From a virus (lineage: Duplodnaviria; Heunggongvirae; Uroviricota; Caudoviricetes), in the IMG/VR virus record IMGVR_UViG_2563366917_000002: DNA of 23,950 bases. One strand, written 5' to 3'. The notes under the pieces were generated by a model, which searched no databases, was not told the DNA's origin, and worked only from the letters and a program-made list of their open reading frames with translations. Position numbers and translations under genes: made by a program. How positions within the stretch are numbered: the stretch's first letter is position 1; the number at the start of each line of letters is the position of its first letter. Shown in pieces: positions 12,158 through 23,950 of the stretch.

Positions 12158-12230
12158 CCATCTACATCACTGAGCTAATAACAGGCCTGCAGGTAATCGC
12201 AGGCCTTTTTATTTGGGGGAGAGGGAAGTC

Positions 12231-12671
12231 ATGAAAAAACTAACCTTTGAAATTCGATCTCCGGCACATCAGCAAAACGCTATTCACGCAGTACAGCAAA
12301 TCCTTCCAGACCCAACCAAACCAATCGTAGTAACCATTCAGGAACGCAACCGCAGCTTAGACCAAAACAGGAAGCTATGGGCCTGCTTAGGTGACGTCTC
12401 TCGTCAGGTTGAATGGCATGGTCGCTGGCTGGATGCAGAAAGCTGGAAGTGTGTGTTTACCGCAGCATTAAAGCAGCAGGATGTTGTTCCTAACCTTGCC
12501 GGGAATGGCTTTGTGGTAATAGGCCAGTCAACCAGCAGGATGCGTGTAAGCGAATTTGCGGAGCTATTAGAGCTTATACAGGCATTCGGTACAGAGCGTG
12601 GCGTTAAGTGGTCAGACGAAGCGCGACTGGCTCTCGAATGGAAAGCGCGATGGGGAGATCGGGCTGCATGA
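12231..12671 (+). CDS. ninB: NinB (Orf-family recombination mediator)
   Basis: 146 aa from MKKLTFEIRSPAHQQNAIHAVQQ..., matching lambda NinB as recalled. The track ORF starts 6 codons upstream. Confidence 0.85.
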   Translation: MKKLTFEIRSPAHQQNAIHAVQQILPDPTKPIVVTIQERNRSLDQNRKLWACLGDVSRQVEWHGRWLDAESWKCVFTAALKQQDVVPNLAGNGFVVIGQSTSRMRVSEFAELLELIQAFGTERGVKWSDEARLALEWKARWGDRAA

Positions 12672-13195
12672 CTATCAAATCAAATACGCCAGCACACGAC
12701 AAGGACTGCTGGCAAACGCCGCTTTGGCTTTTTGATGCACTGGATATTGAGTTTGGATTCTGGCTGGATTCGGCAGCGAGCGACAAAAATGCTCTGTGCG
12801 CTCACTGGCTAACTGAGGACGACGACGCGCTCAATTCTGAGTGGGTAAGCCACGGTGCAATCTGGAATAACCCACCGTACAGCAATATCAGGCCGTGGGT
12901 GGAAAAAGCCGCTGAGCAGTGTATACAACAGCGACAGACGGTAGTGATGCTTGTGCCAGAGGATATGTCTGTCGGATGGTTCAGCAAGGCTCTGGAGAGT
13001 GTTGACGAAGTTCGTATTATCACTGATGGACGGATTAATTTTATCGAACCATCGACAGGGCTGGAGAAGAAGGGAAACAGCAAAGGCTCCATGCTGCTGA
13101 TTTGGCGACCGTTCATCAGTCCTCGACGGATGTTTACTACCGTATCCAAAGCGGCATTGATGGCGATCGGGCAGGGCGTCAGGAGGGCTGCATGA
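12668..13195 (+). CDS. phage orphan DNA N6-adenine methyltransferase (Dam-like)
   Basis: About 175 aa from the ATG overlapping the ninB stop (ATGA). Contains the catalytic NPPY motif ([10 protein letters not shown]) characteristic of N6-adenine methyltransferases. Occupies the ninC/ninD position. Confidence 0.7.
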
Positions 13196-13368: not shown

Positions 13369-13712
13369 CAATGGATTATTCACAGTTAAGTGATTTTGAA
13401 ATTAACAGAATGGTAGGAGACATAATTTTTAAAGGCCTTTGGGCAAGTAAACCGGAAACATCAGGGAATAACACCAACAAATGGTATTACGGAAATGCTG
13501 ATACAACTTTTGAGCCATTAAATCATTTGCCTGACTACTGCAATGATCCGAGCGCTTCATGGCCGATTATTGAGAAATACAGGATTTCTATCTTAGACCA
13601 GTTAACTGAATGGTGTGTGGATGCAAAAGGCGTAAGCCCAATATTTGATACCAGACCTCTCCGCGCCGCCATGATTGTCTTTCTCCTGATGCAGGAGGCC
13701 AATAATGCTTAG
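13365..13712 (+). CDS. hypothetical nin-region protein (NinX/DUF2591-like)
   Basis: About 115-aa ORF with its ATG overlapping the ninE stop. No motif recognised. Confidence 0.45.
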
Positions 13713-13899
13713 CCCATCTCAATCCCTTCAATACCTGAAAGAAAGCATAGAGCGGGCTTCAATGTGCACAGAGTGGATTCTATCTAGGTTTAGCGCATAC
13801 AGAAGATTGCCGGTAAAGGGCATGCCAAGCAAGTCGATGCTGCATATGCAAAAGAATGCGCGCTGGAAGGTATGGCGAGAACACAGGTTATGTGGCTGA
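13705..13899 (+). CDS. ninF: NinF-like small protein
   Basis: 64-aa ORF. The N-terminus [18 protein letters not shown] resembles lambda NinF; the remainder diverges. Confidence 0.5.
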
Positions 13900-13918
13900 A
13901 AGAGGGGGTTATTAAGGC

Positions 13919-14281
13919 GTGAATACCTACAGCATCACATTACCCTGGCCTCCGAGCAATAATCGCTATTACCGCCATAATCGCGGGCGCACGCACGTCA
14001 GCGCAGAGGGGCAGGCATACCGCGATAACGTCGCCCGAATCATTAAAAACGCAATGCTGGATATCGGCCTGGCTATGCCTGTGAAAATCCGCATTGAGTG
14101 CCACATGCCGGATCGCCGTCGCCGTGACCTGGATAATCTGCAAAAAGCCGCTTTTGACGCACTCACTAAAGCAGGTTTCTGGCTGGATGATGCTCAGGTC
14201 GTTGATTACCGCGTTGTGAAGATGCCTGTTACCAAAGGTGGGAGGCTGGAACTGACCATCACCGAAATGGGGAATGAATGA
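13919..14281 (+). CDS. rusA: RusA Holliday-junction resolvase
   Basis: 120-aa ORF ([50 protein letters not shown]...) matching E. coli DLP12 RusA as recalled. Confidence 0.9.
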
Positions 14282-14418
14282 TGTTTGAGTTTAATATGGC
14301 AGAACTTCTTCGCCACCGCTGGGGGCGTCTGCGCTTATATCGTTTCCTCGGTTCTGTTTTGACCGATTACCGAATACTGAAGAATTACGCCAAAACCCTG
14401 ACAGGAACAGGAGTATGA
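14278..14418 (+). CDS. ylcG: small protein, YlcG-like
   Basis: Hand-translated 45-46 codon ORF (M)[45 protein letters not shown] overlapping the rusA stop. Resembles DLP12 YlcG as recalled. Confidence 0.45.
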
Positions 14419-14503
14419 AGTCAGAGATAACAATCAACTAATACTGTTTTGTTGATTTTTGCTTGTAATTGGCGTTCTGGTCTGATTTTTGTGGAGTAAG
14501 TTG

Positions 14504-14887
14504 ATGCGTGATATTCAGATGGTTCTTGAGCGTTGGGGTGCGTGGGCGGCTAATAATCATGAAGATGTGACCTGGTCGTCCATTGCCGCCGGTTTTAAGG
14601 GATTAATTCCTTCAAAAGTAAAATCTCGCCCGCAATGTTGTGACGATGACGCGATGATCATTTGCGGGTGCATGGCCCGTCTGAAAAAGAACAACAGCGA
14701 TTTACACGATTTATTAGTAGATTATTATGTATGTGGTATGACATTCATGTCACTGGCAAGTAAGCATTGCTGCTCGGATGGTTATATCGGGAAAAGGTTA
14801 CAGAAGGCTGAGGGCATAATTGAAGGGATGTTAATGGCATTAGATATCCGGTTAGATATGGATATCGTTGCTAATAATTCTAATTGA
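14504..14887 (+). CDS. Q: late-gene antiterminator Q (phage 82 / DLP12 QuuD type)
   Basis: 127 aa from [26 protein letters not shown]..., with GGAG upstream. Cysteine cluster [12 protein letters not shown]. Matches QuuD as recalled. Confidence 0.85.
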
Positions 14888-14932: not shown

Positions 14933-15030
14933 GCCCCCAAAATAAAGGGTAATATATAACAGAAGGTTTATATAGTAAGAAGCAAGGTAGTGCTTCTAAA
15001 GGAAGTGGCTTGAGGGCTCCACTTATATGT

Positions 15031-15075: not shown

Positions 15076-16158
15076 TTAGAACTGATAAACCAGACCTACA
15101 GCGACGATGTCGTCGGTATCAATACCAGCTGTTTTGGTAAACTTACTATCGTCAATTAAGTTGATTTTGTAATCAACAAAAGTGGACATGTTTTTATTAA
15201 AGTAGTAAGTAGCACCGACATCGACATACTTGACTAAGTCTCGGTCACCATGAACACCAAGGTCTTTACCTTTTGACTGAAGGTAAGCAACAGATGGACG
15301 CAGACCGAAGTCAAACTGATATTGTGCTACTGCTTCAAAGTTTTGTGCTTTGTTTGCAATATGGTTATTACCAAAAACGGTCATATTCTGAGTTTCAGAA
15401 TATGTGGTAGCCAGATAGATATTGTTCGCATCATATTTCAGGCCTGCAGCCCATACTTCCGCATTTTTGCCGGAGGCATTGAATTTGCTCTTACCATAGG
15501 CGACCTGACCGTCAGTGCGATCTGATTTAGCATAGGTTGCACCCACGCCGAATCCTTCATACTCATAAGTAGTGGAGAAACCGAAACCATCACCATTGGC
15601 TTCAGTTACGTCAGTGCGGTCATTTTTACCCTGATACTGAGCAGCAAAGTTCAGGCCATCGACCAGACCAAAGAAGTCGTTGTTACGATAAGTTGCAACA
15701 CCAGTAGTGCGACCAGTCATGAACACATCTGTTTGGGTCCAGGTATCACCACCGAATTCTGGCAGAACGTCAGTCCACGCACCGATGTCGTATGCTACAC
15801 CGTAGTTACGGCCGTAATCGATTGAGCCGTAATCACCAAATTTCAGGCCTGCAAATGCAAGACGGGTTTTGTCTTTGGAAGAACCTTGAGATTCAGCACG
15901 GTTGCCTTTGAATTCATATTCCCACTGACCGAAACCAGTCAGTTGATCGTTGATTTGGGTTTCACCTTTGAAGCCAAGACGGGCATAAGTAGTATCACCA
16001 TCATCTGCATCATTAGAGGAGAAGTAGTGCTTGGCATTAACTTTCCCGTATAGATCCAGCTTGTTACTGTCTTTATTATAAATTTCAGCTGCCTGAGCAG
16101 ACATCGCCATCAGTACTGATGCAGCTACAGCAGAAATTGCCACTGTTAATTTTTTCAT
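15076..16158 (-). CDS. nmpC: outer-membrane general porin, NmpC/OmpD (Lc) family, phage-borne moron
   Basis: 360 aa from [23 protein letters not shown] (signal peptide) with the porin C-terminus ...VAVGLVYQF. Same position and orientation as nmpC in DLP12. Appears intact. Confidence 0.9.
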
Positions 16159-16962: not shown

Positions 16963-17459
16963 TGCCTCCATCATTACGAAAAGCCGTTGCTGCTGCTATT
17001 GGTGGCGGAGCAATTGCTATAGCATCAGTGTTAATCACTGGCCCAAGTGGTAACGATGGTCTGGAAGGTGTCAGCTACATACCATACAAAGATATTGTTG
17101 GTGTATGGACTGTATGTCACGGGCATACAGGAAAAGACATCATGCTCGGTAAAACGTATACCAAAGCAGAATGCAAAGCCCTCCTGAATAAAGACCTTGC
17201 CACGGTCGCCAGACAAATTAACCCGTACATCAAAGTCGATATACCGGAAACAATGCGCGGCGCTCTTTACTCATTCGTTTACAACGTGGGTGCTGGCAAT
17301 TTCAGAACATCGACGCTTCTTCGCAAAATAAACCAGGGCGATATCAAAGGCGCATGTGATCAGCTACGTCGCTGGACATATGCTGGCGGTAAGCAATGGA
17401 AAGGTCTCATGACTCGTCGTGAGATTGAGCGTGAAATCTGTTTGTGGGGTCAGCAATGA
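16962..17459 (+). CDS. R: SAR endolysin (lysozyme with N-terminal signal-anchor-release domain)
   Basis: 165-aa ORF with a Gly/Ala-rich hydrophobic N-terminus ([18 protein letters not shown]), followed by a T4-lysozyme-like catalytic region. Confidence 0.85.
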
Positions 17460-17917
17460 ACAGAGTAACCGCGATTATCTCCGCTCTGGTTATCTGCATC
17501 ATCGTCTGCCTGTCATGGGCTGTTAATCATTACCGTGATAACGCCATTACCTACAAAGCCCAGCGCGACAAAAATGCCAGAGAACTGACGCTGGCGAACG
17601 CGGTAATTACTGACATACAGATGCGTCAGCGTGATGTTGCTGCGCTCGATGCAAAATACACGAAGGAGTTAGCTGATGCGAAAGCTGAAAATGATGCTCT
17701 GCGTGATGATGTTGCCGCTGGTCGTCGTCGGTTGCACATCAAAGCAGTCTGTCAGTCAGTGCGTGAAGCCACCACCGCCTCCGGCGTGGATAATGCAGCC
17801 TCCCCCCGACTGGCAGACACCGCTGAACGGGATTATTTCACCCTCAGAGAGAGGCTGATCACTATGCAAAAACAACTGGAAGGAACCCAGAAGTATATTA
17901 ATGAGCAGTGCAGATAG
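17456..17917 (+). CDS. Rz: Rz i-spanin
   Basis: ATG overlaps the R stop. N-terminal transmembrane segment, then coiled-coil-like periplasmic domain. Confidence 0.8.
17676..17858 (+). CDS. Rz1: Rz1 o-spanin lipoprotein, embedded in the +1 frame of Rz
   Basis: 60-aa ORF with a lipobox (LVVVGCTS) and a proline-rich stretch ([18 protein letters not shown]), lying wholly inside Rz. Confidence 0.75.
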
Positions 17918-17948: not shown

Positions 17949-18242
17949 TTATTGTGAGCAATACACACGCGCTTCCAGCGGAGTATAAATGCCTAAAGTA
18001 ATAAAACCGAGCAATCCATTTACGAATGTTTGCTGGGTTTCTGTTTTAACAACATTTTCTGCACCACCACAAATTTTTGCTGCATCGACAGTTTTCTTCT
18101 GCCCAATTCCCGAAACGAAGAAATGATGGGTGATGGTTTCCTTTGGTGTTACTGCTGTAGGTTTGTTTCCAACAGTAAACGTCTGTTGAGCACATCCTGT
18201 AATAAGCATTGCCAGAGCGGCAGAAAACAACATTTTTTTCAT
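17949..18242 (-). CDS. bor: Bor serum-resistance lipoprotein
   Basis: 97 aa from MKKMLFSAALAMLITGCAQQ..., matching lambda Bor as recalled. Lipobox LITGC. Confidence 0.9.
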   Translation of the reverse strand: MKKMLFSAALAMLITGCAQQTFTVGNKPTAVTPKETITHHFFVSGIGQKKTVDAAKICGGAENVVKTETQQTFVNGLLGFITLGIYTPLEARVYCSQ

Positions 18243-18722: not shown

Positions 18723-19049
18723 ATGAAAAGACGCCTTTTACTACTTTTTCTGTTATCTGTCCTGGCAGTGGGATGCTCGCAGCAAAAAGCTGATGAGCCC
18801 CGGCAATTAGTGACGGTGTATCCACGATATCCGGAATATGCTGCAGCAAATTATATCAAGGGGCTGGTTGAGGTTAAGTTCGATATTGGTGCTGATGGGA
18901 CTGTGACACGGATCGTTTTTCTCCGCTCAGAGCCTCATAATTTGTTTCGTGATGAAGTGGTGAAGGCCATGGCGAAATGGCGATTTGAAAAGAATCGCCC
19001 CTGTCAGGGAGTGAAGAGACAATTTATCTTTACGCCGTCACGTCCTTGA
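18723..19049 (+). CDS. lipoprotein consisting of a TonB C-terminal-like domain
   Basis: 108 aa from MKRRLLLLFLLSVLAVGCSQ (lipobox LAVGC). Residues ~30-95 align to the E. coli TonB C-terminal domain (ours YPRYPEYAAANYIKGLVEVKFDIGADGTVTRIVFLRSEPHNLFRDEVVKAMAKWRFE versus TonB [57 protein letters not shown], from memory). Confidence 0.6.
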   Translation: MKRRLLLLFLLSVLAVGCSQQKADEPRQLVTVYPRYPEYAAANYIKGLVEVKFDIGADGTVTRIVFLRSEPHNLFRDEVVKAMAKWRFEKNRPCQGVKRQFIFTPSRP

Positions 19050-20000: not shown

Positions 20001-20549
20001 ATGAAGGTTAATAAAAAGAGGCTTGCCGAAATTTTCAACGTGGACCCGCGGACGATTGAACGCTGGCAGTCTCAGGGACTCCCTTGCGCCTCCAAAGGTA
20101 GTAAGGGCATTGAATCTGTATTTGATACTGCCATGGCAATTCAGTGGTATGCGCAGAGGGAAACTGATATCGAAAACGAAAAGCTCCGCAAAGAACTGGA
20201 CGATTTGCGTGCGGCAGCGGAGTCAGATTTACAACCCGGCACCATTGACTATGAACGCTACCGGCTCACAAAAGCGCAGGCAGATGCGCAGGAACTGAAA
20301 AATGCCCGTGAAGACGGAGTAGTGCTGGAAACTGAACTGTTTACCTTCATTCTGCAACGTGTGGCACAGGAGATTTCGGGGATACTTGTGCGTGTGCCGT
20401 TGACATTACAGCGTAAATATCCGGACATTTCACCATCACACCTTGATGTGGTGAAAACTGAAATCGCGAAAGCCTCCAATGTTGCAGCTAAGGCCGGTGA
20501 AAACGTGGGCGGGTGGATCGATGATTTCAGACGCGCAGAAGGCAGCTAA
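20001..20549 (+). CDS. nu1: terminase small subunit (Nu1-like)
   Basis: 182-aa ORF ([28 protein letters not shown]... winged HTH) homologous to lambda Nu1 as recalled, directly downstream of cos. Confidence 0.9.
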
Positions 20550-21306
20550 TGCAGCCGGTGCGATAGCTACAGGGCTTTTATCTCTCATTATTCCTGTTCC
20601 ACTGACGACAGTTCAGTGGGCCAATAAACATTATTACCTTCCTAAAGAGTCGTCTTATACCCCGGGGCGATGGGAAACACTGCCGTTTCAGGTTGGCATC
20701 ATGAACTGTATGGGCAACGATCTGATTCGCACGGTTAACCTGATTAAATCTGCCCGTGTTGGTTATACAAAGATGTTGCTGGGAGTGGAGGCTTATTTTA
20801 TTGAGCATAAATCACGCAACAGCCTTCTTTTTCAGCCCACGGACTCAGCTGCTGAAGATTTTATGAAATCTCATGTTGAGCCAACGATAAGGGATGTTCC
20901 TGCATTGCTGGAGCTGGCTCCATGGTTCGGAAGAAAACACCGCGATAATACGCTCACCCTGAAGCGTTTTTCCTCCGGTGTGGGGTTCTGGTGTCTGGGT
21001 GGTGCGGCAGCAAAAAACTACCGTGAAAAATCCGTGGATGTGGTCTGTTATGACGAGCTTTCCTCGTTCGAACCGGATGTTGAAAAAGAGGGTTCGCCAA
21101 CCCTGCTGGGGGATAAACGTATTGAGGGCTCTGTATGGCCAAAATCCATTCGCGGCTCGACGCCTAAAATCAAAGGCTCCTGCCAGATCGAAAAAGCCGC
21201 TAACGAGTCGGCACACTTCATGCGTTTTTATGTGCCCTGTCCGCACTGTGGGGAGGAGCAGTATCTGAAATTTGGCGATGATGCCTCGCCTATGAGACGA
21301 CAATAA
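20521..21306 (+). pseudogene. A: terminase large subunit (gpA) 5' fragment, interrupted by an IS insertion
   Basis: Homologous to the lambda gpA N-terminus (...VQWANKHYYLPKESSYTPGRWETLPFQ...). Reading frame is lambda-like up to ...KFGDDASP at 21291, then runs into the IS and stops at 21306. Confidence 0.85.
21285..21291. repeat. target-site duplication (left copy), CTCGCCT
   Basis: The 7-bp sequence ctcgcct occurs at 21285-21291 and again at 23701-23707, flanking the IS. Removing the IS and one copy restores the gpA frame. Confidence 0.6.
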
Positions 21307-21383
21307 CTCAGTCCGCCTGGCGCCGATTATTCTGGCCGGTTTTGTAACCTGAGTGTCATTTACATGATCCAACAGGAAATGGC

Positions 21384-22883
21384 GTGACGCTCAATACTTC
21401 TCAGGTCAGTTACTATATGACTCAGCGTAAGAAAGGTATAACTCAGCATATCTCGGCCATGAAGGCTGGTATCTCAGTCCGTTCTGGTCGTCGGATCGAA
21501 AAAGGAGAGTGGGCAAAAAACAGTGTTCGGCACTGGCGCACACGCAAAGATCCTCTGGAAGCTGTGTGGGACAGCATGCTTGTTCCTCTGTTGAAAGAGA
21601 GGCCGGCTCTGACACCAACAACTCTGCTGGAGATGCTACAGGATAAATATCCCGGCCAGTACCCCAACAGCCTTCGAAGAACAATGCAACGGCGGGTCCG
21701 CGAATGGAAGCTACAGTATGGTGCAGAGCAGGAGGTCATGTTCCGCCAGCGACATCAGCCCGGTCTGCGAGGTCTGTCGGACTTTACTGAACTGAAAGGT
21801 GTAGTTGTCACCATCGCCGGTAAGTTGTTGGCGCATAAGTTGTATCACTTCCGTCTGGAATGGAGCCACTGGAGCTGGATGCGGGTTGTGCTGGGTGGTG
21901 AGAGCTTCTCTGCTCTGGCTGAAGGTCTGCAGGAAGCCCTCGGACAACTGGGCGGAGTGCCGGTAGAACATAAAACGGACAGCCTGAGGGCAGCATGGAA
22001 ACAACAGGGCGAAGATGGACGCCGCGAGCTGACTGAGCGTTATGCTGCTCTCTGTCAGCACTACGGAATGCAGGGCGTACACAATAATGCCGGTCGGGGC
22101 CACGAAAATGGCTCGGTTGAAAGTGCCCACGGACATCTGAAAAGGCGTATCTGTCAGGCGCTGATACTGCGGGGCAGTAACGACTTCAGCACCATAGAAG
22201 AATATCAGGCCTTCATCACTCAGCAGGTTATGCGGCACAACCGTAACAATCAGGATCTGGTCAAGGAAGAACGTCTTCATCTGAAACCGCTGCCGCTTCG
22301 TCGCAGTGCTGACTATGATGAGCTGACTGTGAGGGTTAGCCGCAGCAGTACCATCAATGTGAAGCACGTCGTCTACAGCGTACCTTCCCGGCTTGTAGGT
22401 CAACTGTTACGGGTCCGGTTATGGGACGATCGTCTGAGCTGTTACGTTGGCAGCAGCGAGGTCATGAGCTGCCCACGTGTCAGACCAGAAAAAGGGAAGA
22501 CGCGGGCCCGTCGTATCGACTTCCGACATGTGATCGACAGTCTGGCAAAAAAGCCCGGTGCGTTCTGCCATGCAACGCTGAGAAATGACATCCTGCCAGA
22601 CGATGAATGGCGGAGGCTGTGGCGTCGCTTATGTAATCATCTGGAACCCGACATGGCAGGCAGGCTGATGGTACATGCTCTGAAACTGGCTGCAGGATAC
22701 GACGATATCTCAGTCGTGGCAAAAGGTATGGAGCAGATGCTGAATACCCCGGGAAACGTGGATCTGCACCGGCTGATGCGCTTCCTGGGTATAAAGGAAA
22801 AGGCGTTGCCGGTAGTCAATGTGAAACAGCATAACCTGAGCAGTTATGAGCAACTACTGCGTGGCAAGGGAGGTTCGCAGTGA
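21384..22883 (+). CDS. istA: IS21-family transposase IstA
   Basis: 499-aa ORF; the track start is GTG at 21384, and an internal ATG at 21417 is an alternative. N-terminal HTH (ITQHISAMKAGISVRSGRRIEKGEW) followed by a DDE-type integrase core. Confidence 0.85.
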   Translation: MTLNTSQVSYYMTQRKKGITQHISAMKAGISVRSGRRIEKGEWAKNSVRHWRTRKDPLEAVWDSMLVPLLKERPALTPTTLLEMLQDKYPGQYPNSLRRTMQRRVREWKLQYGAEQEVMFRQRHQPGLRGLSDFTELKGVVVTIAGKLLAHKLYHFRLEWSHWSWMRVVLGGESFSALAEGLQEALGQLGGVPVEHKTDSLRAAWKQQGEDGRRELTERYAALCQHYGMQGVHNNAGRGHENGSVESAHGHLKRRICQALILRGSNDFSTIEEYQAFITQQVMRHNRNNQDLVKEERLHLKPLPLRRSADYDELTVRVSRSSTINVKHVVYSVPSRLVGQLLRVRLWDDRLSCYVGSSEVMSCPRVRPEKGKTRARRIDFRHVIDSLAKKPGAFCHATLRNDILPDDEWRRLWRRLCNHLEPDMAGRLMVHALKLAAGYDDISVVAKGMEQMLNTPGNVDLHRLMRFLGIKEKALPVVNVKQHNLSSYEQLLRGKGGSQ

Positions 22884-23635
22884 GCAATATCCATCACCTT
22901 GAACGCAGCCTGCGTAAACTACGCCTGACACGAGTTGGAGCTGAATGGCACGCTCTGGAAAAACGAGCACTGGCAGAAGGCTGGACACCATCGCGCTATC
23001 TTCTGACGCTATGCAATGAAGAACTCCTGTGGCGCGAGAGTGAAAAACTGCGTCGTTATAAAAAGGAGGCCCGGTTGCCAGTTGCCAAAACGCTAAGCGA
23101 ATACGACTTCAGTCAGGTGCCGGAACTGAATGGAGCTCAGTTCCGGCAACTCTGTGAAACGACAGACTGGGTTGATGCAGGAGAAAACGTTCTGCTGTTC
23201 GGAGCCAGCGGGTTGGGGAAAAGCCATCTGGCGGCAGCGATCGTGGATGGCGTAGTAGGCCAGGGCTACCGGGCCCGGTTCTACAGCGCAGGAGAGTTGT
23301 TGCAGGAACTACGTAAAGCCAGAGCGCAGTTGAAACTGAATGAGCTGCTACTGAAACTGGATCGCTACCGGGTGATAGTGGTGGATGATCTTGGCTATGT
23401 CAAACGCGACAGCGCCGAAACGGGAGTACTGTTCGAGTTAATAGCGCATCGCTATGAACGTGGGAGCCTGGTGATAACCAGTAACCATCCGTTCAGCATG
23501 TGGGGCAGCATCTTCGTGGATGAGACTATGGCGGTGGCGGCGGCAGACCGGCTGATCCATCACGGATATATGTTCGAACTGAAAGGTGAAAGCTACAGGA
23601 AAAAGACAGCGAAGGCAGTAACAAGCGCGACTTGA
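22880..23635 (+). CDS. istB: IS21-family helper ATPase IstB (DnaC-like AAA+)
   Basis: 251-aa ORF overlapping the istA stop. Walker A GASGLGKSHLAAA and Walker B VIVVDDLGY. Confidence 0.9.
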   Translation: MSNIHHLERSLRKLRLTRVGAEWHALEKRALAEGWTPSRYLLTLCNEELLWRESEKLRRYKKEARLPVAKTLSEYDFSQVPELNGAQFRQLCETTDWVDAGENVLLFGASGLGKSHLAAAIVDGVVGQGYRARFYSAGELLQELRKARAQLKLNELLLKLDRYRVIVVDDLGYVKRDSAETGVLFELIAHRYERGSLVITSNHPFSMWGSIFVDETMAVAAADRLIHHGYMFELKGESYRKKTAKAVTSAT

Positions 23636-23700
23636 TGTCGCACTGAAGGGTGCGGCCAGTATAGTTGGCGCGAGTCGGCAAAACTAGTTGACGTCTAATA

Positions 23701-23707
23701 CTCGCCT
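23701..23707. repeat. target-site duplication (right copy), CTCGCCT
   Basis: See the left copy at 21285-21291. Confidence 0.6.
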
Positions 23708-23950
23708 TTCGGTCTTAAGTGGGAGAAGAATAAGCCAGAAAGTGTTTTCTACCTTTGTGAGCATCATGGCTGTGTGATCCATCAGTCTGAGCTTGACCAG
23801 AGTAACGGGCGGTGGATCTGTGAAAACACGGGCATGTGGACCCGTGACGGCCTGATGTTTTTCAGCGCCCGGGGTGATGAAATTCCGCCGCCGCGCTCCA
23901 TCACTTTCCATATCTGGACGGCGTACAGTCCGTTCACCACCTGGGTACAG
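23701..23950 (+). pseudogene. A: terminase large subunit (gpA) continuation after the IS; runs off the window end
   Basis: Frame from 23702 translates SPFGLKWEKNKPESVFYLCEHHGCVIHQSELDQSNGRWICENTGMWTRDGLMFFSARGDEIPPPRSITFHIWTAYSPFTTWVQ, homologous to lambda gpA ...FGLKWTPDDPSSVFYLCEH...FHIWTAYSPFTTWVQ as recalled. Confidence 0.8.

Follow-up and report, generated by a model that had tools for sequence, protein, structure and literature searches.

The window analysed here is a stretch of 23,950 nucleotides from the caudoviricete record IMGVR_UViG_2563366917_000002, and it carries part of a lambdoid prophage whose terminase genes lie close to the right end of the window. The large-subunit gene of this pair is interrupted by a complete insertion sequence. 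The features of the locus, in window positions, are as follows:

20001..20549, + strand: intact gene for the small terminase subunit, of Nu1 / phage 21 gp1 type (Pfam Phage_Nu1, E=1.9e-81, profile 1-163 of 164)
20521..21290, + strand: 5' portion of a phage 21 gp2-type gene for the large terminase subunit (Pfam GpA_ATPase, E=2.6e-48, profile 2-209 of 247)
21285..21290: left copy of the target-site duplication CTCGCC, 6 bp (single copy at the empty site, L001 33285-33290)
21291..23700, + strand: complete ISEc10 element of the IS21 family, 2410 bp, reading in the direction of the phage late operon
21291..21338: left terminal inverted repeat, a 48-nt arm beginning TATGAGACGACAA
21384..22883, + strand: istA, IS21-family transposase, 499 aa, intact (NCBIfam NF033546 transpos_IS21, Pfam Mu-transpos_C_2)
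22880..23635, + strand: istB, helper AAA+ ATPase, 251 aa, intact (Pfam IstB_IS21, NCBIfam NF038214)
23653..23700: right terminal inverted repeat, a 48-nt arm ending TTGACGTCTAATA
23701..23706: right copy of the target-site duplication CTCGCC, 6 bp, placed by comparison of ISEc10 flanks
23707..23950, + strand: continuation of the terminase large-subunit gene, covering the last base of codon 257 and the codons up to 338, where the window end cuts the gene

The segment 20521..21290 holds codons 1-256 of the large subunit and two bases of codon 257. Its start at 20521 overlaps the Nu1-type gene directly upstream and is also the annotated start in ATCC 11775, where the position equivalent to the upstream gene is annotated as "terminase small subunit." The intact large subunit shares 99.8% identity with Escherichia phage 21 gp2 (OL657228, M81255) across its full 642 aa, whereas the gp2-type terminase of the window has just 64% identity to the lambda-type gpA of strain 510016. 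The first-pass annotation had called the gene a lambda-like gpA, a description that is loose given that the gene is phage 21 gp2. The window gene and phage 21 gp2 share their GpA_ATPase and GpA_nuclease architecture as well as an overlapping Nu1-type gene upstream; gp2 of phage 21, itself a homologue of lambda gpA, is uninterrupted, whereas the window gene is split at codon 257 by ISEc10. Within the intact 642-aa allele, Pfam places GpA_ATPase at residues 46-293 and GpA_nuclease at 323-601, a map that belongs to the ATCC 11775 protein, which is identical to the window across the comparable 338 aa, the window itself showing the split ATPase domain only. A search of the intact terminase against NCBIfam returned no match, and a sequence search for solved structures returned none for the terminase or for IstA. 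According to the ATCC 11775 annotation the prophage adjoins icd, the known phage 21 attachment site.

The element in the terminase gene is identical over 2409 nt (100%) to copies carried by CFT073 and by numerous other E. coli, and is named here from the RefSeq annotation that these matched copies carry ("IS21-like element ISEc10 family"). Matches at 99% identity or above number 491 records, and the element is present in 899 of 5,426 complete genomes. An IS21-family element encoding IstA and IstB had been proposed for this interval, and both open reading frames are indeed present and score above their NCBIfam equivalog cutoffs. IstA reaches 227 bits against the equivalog NF033546 (cutoff 160; profile 2-293 of 294) and corresponds to WP_000174402.1 in identical ISEc10 copies; this full-length match, together with sequence identity to a copy seen to transpose under laboratory conditions, makes it likely that the protein retains a catalytic DDE triad. 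IstB matches PF01695 at E=9.5e-62 and NF038214 at 266.7 bits (cutoff 200), and its translation displays a Walker A motif (GASGLGKS) and a Walker B motif (VIVVDDLG). Both genes lie on one strand, the GTG start of istB overlapping the istA stop (GTGA). The inverted-repeat arms, which are 71% complementary, fall exactly at the element ends, and the right end TTGACGTCTAATA recurs unchanged in 11 other copies. ISEc10 is known to be mobile, having produced new insertions beside lpp in CFT073 under laboratory selection (PMC7482066). The seven ISEc10 copies of CFT073 agree with the present one in sequence, in their istA/istB pair and in their ends, and differ in location alone; the window copy is presumably active. 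Its flanks give a length of 2,410 bp, in contrast to the 2,530 bp published for ISEc10 (PMC8764528). Terminators or outward promoters within the element, which would point to polarity or reactivation, appeared only as weak consensus matches, none of them convincing (2 promoter-like sites where 2.8 were expected), and its + strand holds no strong terminator.

The exact boundaries of the insertion deserve some care. The sequence CTCGCCT occurs at 21285-21291 and again at 23701-23707, and had been interpreted as a 7-bp duplication flanking an element of 2409 bp. The repeat itself stands on both sides, whereas the lengths are corrected to 6 bp (CTCGCC) and 2410 bp. The base preceding ATGAGACG is T in 13 of 13 independent ISEc10 copies, regardless of which base follows the right-hand duplication; therefore T21291 is the first base of the element, the element measures 2410 bp and the duplication 6 bp. 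The seventh matching T is explained by coincidence, because the native base just past the target (23707) is also T. On the evidence of these 13 independent flanks the 7-bp duplication was dropped in favour of 6 bp plus a first IS base, and the restored terminase sequence is the same under either reading. Members of the IS21 family duplicate 4-8 bp of their target. For ISEc10, the duplication measured 6 bp at 8 of 11 sites, with 4, 5 and 7 bp seen once each. No clear target motif emerged from ten sites picked irrespective of flank similarity. As a side observation, a loose ATGCC(T/A)G lies upstream of ISEc10 in 5 of 13 sites, three of those five having been picked for query-like flanks, and we make no claim for it.

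The uninterrupted form of this locus is common. An empty site with otherwise identical flanks occurs in phage PhiR63_2 and in 188 complete E. coli genomes, all of which match the window at approximately 100% identity minus the IS, and in ATCC 11775 the empty site carries a single CTCGCCT. The occupied form, in turn, was missing from the complete genomes: a search of 5,426 complete E. coli genomes turned up neither the left nor the right ISEc10 junction, and the top coverage in a whole-window search of such genomes was 90%, corresponding to everything but the IS. With the empty site common and the junctions found in 0 of 5,426 complete genomes, the sequence comparison marks the insertion as recent and specific to the strain, in keeping with the earlier claim of a recent and precise event. 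The 261-aa junction protein was found in two contigs only, each belonging to an NCBI draft assembly; one of the two matches the window without a difference over 13,430 nt.

The absence of both junctions from complete genomes would also fit an artefact in which a short-read draft assembly or its scaffolding misplaced a multicopy 2.4-kb repeat into the terminase gene. The window does derive from a draft scaffold in which an N gap lies 252 nt beyond the IS, and in the other draft with this left junction the contig stops 209 nt into the element. Such an artefact is nonetheless very improbable: both junctions and the entire IS sit in one gap-free stretch, and the same left junction was reached independently by two assemblies. 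Moreover, 6 bp that occur as a single copy at the empty site are duplicated around the element, a signature of transposition that no misjoin would leave behind; ISEc10 also duplicates 6 bp more often than any other length.

ISEc10 interrupts the gene at codon 257, a point inside the ATPase domain that precedes the entire nuclease domain. The interrupted reading frame enters the IS and stops four codons in, at 21304-21306, for a product of 261 aa ending in ...DDASPMRRQ. Correspondingly, the ATPase profile is divided between positions 2-209 before the insertion and 210-247 after it, the latter matched in the translation of 23702-23950. When the element and one copy of the repeat are deleted, a stop-free frame of 338 aa runs to the window end and equals the intact terminase of ATCC 11775, which bears out the proposal that the gene could be restored in silico. 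The window ends 250 nt after the IS, and a gap of 440 N begins 3 nt past that point in the source scaffold, leaving about a quarter of the terminase gene (roughly codons 339-502) unsequenced there.

In the interpretation that we favour, with a probability of about 0.88, ISEc10 moved into codon 257 of the gp2-type gene of a phage-21-like prophage and left that prophage unable to package autonomously. The sequence shows a complete ISEc10 at this codon of the icd-adjacent prophage, with the 6-bp target CTCGCC duplicated, and the gene would now yield a 261-aa N-terminal fragment containing the first ~80% of the ATPase domain. That fragment would lack the remainder of the ATPase domain and the whole endonuclease domain and, judging from lambda genetics, the C-terminal end that binds the prohead. 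In lambda, mutants in gene A still assemble proheads and tails, yet cos stays uncut and no DNA is packaged. By the same token, the prophage would be expected to perform no cos cleavage and no DNA translocation, so that heads would stay unfilled after induction; we infer the loss of autonomous packaging from domain content and from the genetics of lambda and phage 21. Repression, excision, replication and lysis should still function, as should the moron genes (a porin, iss/bor and a TonB-like gene). Late transcription antiterminated by Q probably crosses the IS, in which case the defect would be specific to terminase and not strongly polar.

The prophage might alternatively have been dead before the IS arrived, the insertion then being a symptom of decay and not the cause of the packaging defect. 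Some signs of wear can be cited to this effect, as the annotation of the ATCC 11775 prophage lists a zapA-like gene with a frameshift and a DUF1364 gene that is partial, and the right half of the source prophage could be traced only up to tail gene U in a scaffold broken by two N gaps. The two small annotated lesions, however, fall in accessory regions. Once the IS is removed, 3 substitutions and 3 single-base indels over 21.3 kb separate the window from Escherichia phage PhiR63_2, and just 2 substitutions separate it from the prophage of ATCC 11775, so that it is essentially identical to a deposited phage genome, in agreement with the first-pass description of the immunity, lysis and moron genes as intact. 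PhiR63_2 was deposited as a "complete genome" with ECOR13 as its host, and we infer from this record, with its complete genome and named host, that it is a plaque-forming isolate. The 7 kb downstream in the source scaffold are likewise 99.3-99.9% identical to PhiR63_2, with open reading frames called normally outside the gaps. Prior decay is on these grounds improbable, and we retain ISEc10 as the likely cause of the packaging defect.

Inability to package autonomously need not amount to immobility. If a lambdoid prophage in the same host, or a phage superinfecting it, had phage 21 terminase specificity, it might supply gp2 in trans, so that a genome of ~50 kb would be packaged and could lysogenise new hosts, and the prophage would remain transmissible in spite of a real insertion. 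Precedent exists in E. coli O157 Sakai, where interactions between prophages allow defective ones to be excised, packaged and passed on (PMC2669165). In the present case cos is unchanged, as are the small subunit gene and every other gene in the window, and phage 21 type terminases occur in several E. coli phages. The 48.1 kb of PhiR63_2 include a 705-bp insertion (annotated as an IS200-family transposase) that is absent from the window; subtracting it and adding 2.4 kb gives an IS-bearing genome of about 49.8 kb, within head capacity. Rescue would, however, require that the cell also harbour a helper whose specificity matches, and the only other gpA-type gene compared is 64% identical. The terminases of lambda and phage 21 are not known to substitute for each other. 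We regard transmission by this route as unlikely, although another resident prophage with a terminase of phage 21 specificity could still permit packaging. As a helper of this type could complement the lesion in trans, the term "defective" applied by the earlier annotation is better replaced by "unable to package autonomously," which is the reading that we maintain.

The IS629-bearing prophages of O157:H7 Sakai offer a close parallel: in both cases an IS resides in an otherwise complete lambdoid prophage that has kept its cargo genes, and in both the prophage is expected to be defective alone and potentially rescuable (PMC2669165). The Sakai prophages differ in IS family and in phage, whereas the window presents a single clean hit in terminase and a near-identical phage free of the IS for comparison. 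Inactivation of prophage morphogenesis genes by insertion sequences is well documented in E. coli. The present case is a routine instance of IS-mediated prophage inactivation, caused by a named element and involving no new mechanism or element, and its value lies mainly in annotation and strain biology. The iss-carrying, phage-21-like prophage probably cannot spread alone in its source strain, while it would still supply immunity, lysis genes and its cargo of porin, Iss/Bor and TonB-like protein. It also forms a clean natural pair with the IS-free PhiR63_2 or ATCC 11775 prophage, one that could be used to probe the effect of a single terminase lesion on prophage retention.

A comparable insertion is found in strain 510016 (CP025851), where ISEc10 lies in the lambda-type gpA in the same orientation, flanked by a 6-bp duplication of CCTGCG, and where the interruption falls 23 codons (69 nt) further downstream in the homologous gene than that of the window. 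This insertion occurs in one complete genome only, in a prophage that differs from ours in its lysis genes and in having a lambda-type instead of a phage 21-type terminase; the two insertions are independent events. Two independent ISEc10 insertions in gpA-type genes, in different prophages and strains, are placed 69 nt apart, both oriented along late transcription and both following ATGCCT(C/G). A regional preference of ISEc10 for the gpA-type stretch that encodes a CxxC...CxxxxC segment could be imagined from this pair, though we consider it improbable. Were it real, the grounding of lambdoid prophages at terminase by ISEc10 would be recurrent and perhaps selected, and late transcription antiterminated by Q would drive istAB upon induction, thereby coupling prophage induction to a burst of transposition.

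The terminase large-subunit gene of this phage-21-like prophage is interrupted by the insertion sequence ISEc10. This observation, made in the first-pass annotation, is confirmed and its interpretation supported, with three refinements concerning the exact size of the element and its duplication (2410 bp and 6 bp), the identity of the gene (phage 21 gp2) and the predicted consequence for the phage (no autonomous packaging). The event itself is ordinary and already well understood, involving a known insertion sequence and a known phage gene. The relevant features of the window are as follows.

Terminase genes and inserted element in the window
20001-20549, directly upstream of the large-subunit gene: Nu1-type small terminase gene (E=1.9e-81)
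21285-21290 and 23701-23706: target-site duplication CTCGCC, 6 bp
21291-23700: ISEc10, TATGAGACG...CGTCTAATA, 2410 bp
21384-22883, same strand as istB: istA ORF, 499 aa
22880-23635, same strand as istA: istB ORF, 251 aa

The assignment to the IS21 family, with IstA and IstB as products, holds: the two ORFs, which overlap in GTGA, score above the NCBIfam equivalog cutoffs for the IS21 transposase (IstA, 227 bits; cutoff 160) and the IstB helper (266.7 bits; cutoff 200). An imperfect inverted repeat of 48 nt lies exactly at both ends of the element, and over the 2409 nt between the direct repeats identity is 100% with copies bearing the annotation "IS21-like element ISEc10 family" in numerous genomes, including that of CFT073, which carries seven. 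Among 5,426 complete E. coli genomes, 899 contain a match to ISEc10, and 491 records match at 99% or more. The element is mobile, as new insertions beside lpp have been selected in CFT073 in the laboratory (PMC7482066).

The ends of the element were set by fetching further ISEc10 copies with their flanks and comparing them. The heptamer CTCGCCT does occur twice in the window, at 21285-21291 and 23701-23707, and had been read as a 7-bp repeat around a 2409-bp element. Yet the base preceding ATGAGACG is T in all 13 independent left flanks, whereas a base other than T follows the right-hand duplication at eight of the 11 sites for which both flanks are known; the constant T is thus part of ISEc10. 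These 13 copies give a length of 2,410 bp, in contrast to the 2,530 bp stated in a study of ST131 (PMC8764528). The 7-bp duplication was rejected, since the seventh T matches only because the native base 3' of the target is also T; the restored sequence is the same under either reading. Of the duplications at the 11 sites, eight measure 6 bp; the remaining three measure 4, 5 and 7 bp.

Within the terminase gene, the upstream ORF matches positions 2-209 of the 247-position Pfam profile GpA_ATPase (E=2.6e-48) before reading into ISEc10 and stopping four codons inside, and the frame from 23702 supplies positions 210-247, so that a single protein domain is cleanly split. As previously proposed, deleting the element plus one repeat restores the frame, here a stop-free 338 aa up to the window end, identical to the 642-aa protein that the ATCC 11775 prophage encodes intact. 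Pfam places GpA_ATPase at 46-293 and GpA_nuclease at 323-601 of that protein, and the interruption falls at codon 257. The description of the gene as lambda-like gpA needs refining: the ATCC 11775 protein shows 99.8% identity to gp2, the terminase large subunit of Escherichia phage 21, and just 64% to a lambda-type gpA restored from E. coli strain 510016. The prophage also adjoins icd, the phage 21 attachment site. By these comparisons, the interrupted gene is phage 21 gp2, not lambda gpA.

Several lines of evidence bear out the suggestion of a recent, precise insertion. When the window was compared with complete E. coli genomes, 188 matched 90% of its length, all but ISEc10, at approximately 100% identity. 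In ATCC 11775, whose prophage is separated from the window by just two substitutions across 21.3 kb, the empty site reads gatgcctcgcctttcgg, with CTCGCC in single copy. One of these substitutions, at window position 20200, places GAC (Asp) for GCC (Ala) at codon 67 of the small terminase subunit and is probably neutral. Neither the left nor the right junction was found in the 5,426 complete genomes. Records of the 261-aa junction protein (...DDASPMRRQ) are limited to two contigs from NCBI draft assemblies: scaffold KB733358.1 (GCA_000353145.1), which shares 13,430 identical nt with the window and is evidently where the window comes from, and ANYO01000014.1 (GCA_000326465.1), which ends 209 nt into ISEc10. 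The insertion is thus recent and limited to one lineage. That an assembly artefact placed ISEc10 inside the gene is very unlikely, as a misjoin would not duplicate a sequence found just once at the empty site, and the duplication has the length commonest for ISEc10.

KB733358.1 itself contains two runs of N, of 440 nt at 13433-13872 and 430 nt at 16995-17424. The first begins 3 nt past window position 23950, within the 3' portion of the terminase gene, part of which consequently lacks sequence in this strain; the second falls in the head protease/scaffold gene.

The predicted truncated product retains the Walker A/B region (KSARVGYT and VVCYDE in translation). It would lack the last part of the ATPase domain and the nuclease domain in full, as well as the C-terminal end, which in lambda and phage 21 binds the prohead. 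In lambda, A mutants fail both to cut cos and to package DNA. Given the domains lost and this mutant phenotype, the prophage should be unable to package its own DNA autonomously. The IS-bearing genome would measure approximately 49.8 kb (the 48.1 kb of phage PhiR63_2, less its own 705-bp insertion, plus 2.4 kb), a size that a lambda-type head can still package. Neither a convincing terminator nor a convincing outward promoter was found in ISEc10. As lambdoid late transcription is Q-antiterminated, little transcriptional polarity is expected. The terminase 3' end overlaps the next gene, whose translational coupling may be lost. "Defective" is used here to mean unable to package autonomously. 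A phage-21-type terminase from another resident prophage could complement the defect in trans, and rescue of this kind has a precedent among the defective prophages of O157 Sakai (PMC2669165).

An independent ISEc10 insertion, present in just one complete genome, interrupts the lambda-type gpA of a different prophage in strain 510016 (CP025851).

ISEc10 copy in strain 510016
4013-6422 of L002, the 510016 region (NZ_CP025851.1 4652857-4655266), same orientation as the window copy: ISEc10 with 6-bp target-site duplication CCTGCG

This copy is shifted 23 codons (69 nt) downstream relative to the equivalent site, and ATGCCT precedes both targets. Two insertions this near each other in homologous genes are a hint of regional preference; a hotspot is only a possibility, because ten ISEc10 sites picked regardless of flank similarity gave no clear consensus.

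Without ISEc10, the window differs from Escherichia phage PhiR63_2 (PV340574.1, host ECOR13) by three substitutions and three single-base indels in 21.3 kb, a region comprising int, xis, recombination genes, cI, cro, cII, O, P, the nin region, Q, a porin moron, S, R, Rz, iss/bor, a TonB-like ORF and the small terminase gene. As had been claimed, immunity, lysis and moron genes are all intact, and ISEc10 is the sole substantive lesion seen in the window. We infer from its database record that PhiR63_2 forms plaques. Three moron-type cargo genes surround the lysis cassette, all intact and identical to those of the ATCC 11775 prophage.

Moron-type genes in the window
15076-16158, minus strand: OmpC/NmpC-like porin, downstream of Q
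17949-18242, minus strand: iss, serum-survival lipoprotein gene, Bor homologue
18723-19049, plus strand: short ORF with TonB C-terminal domain

As cargo in its right arm, beyond the window, PhiR63_2 (L011) bears the sitABCD manganese/iron transporter operon (42620-46069). Its own insertion of about 705 bp (12346-13050), in a non-essential region between ren and ninB, encodes a protein annotated as an IS200-family transposase and is absent at the equivalent window position (~12210); this phage lineage has thus gained different IS elements at different places. Single-base differences in homopolymer length from PhiR63_2 fall at 12211 and in two C runs, at 14934 and, within Rz, at 17802. They may be sequencing errors in the PhiR63_2 record, as the window agrees there with ATCC 11775, in which Rz is annotated with 153 aa as against 133 aa. 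The RefSeq annotation of ATCC 11775 (prophage region L001) also includes a frameshifted zapA-like gene (14378-14589; window ~2378-2589) and a partial DUF1364 gene (25833-25922; window ~13833-13922), both of them small lesions in accessory genes that the IS-free relatives also have.
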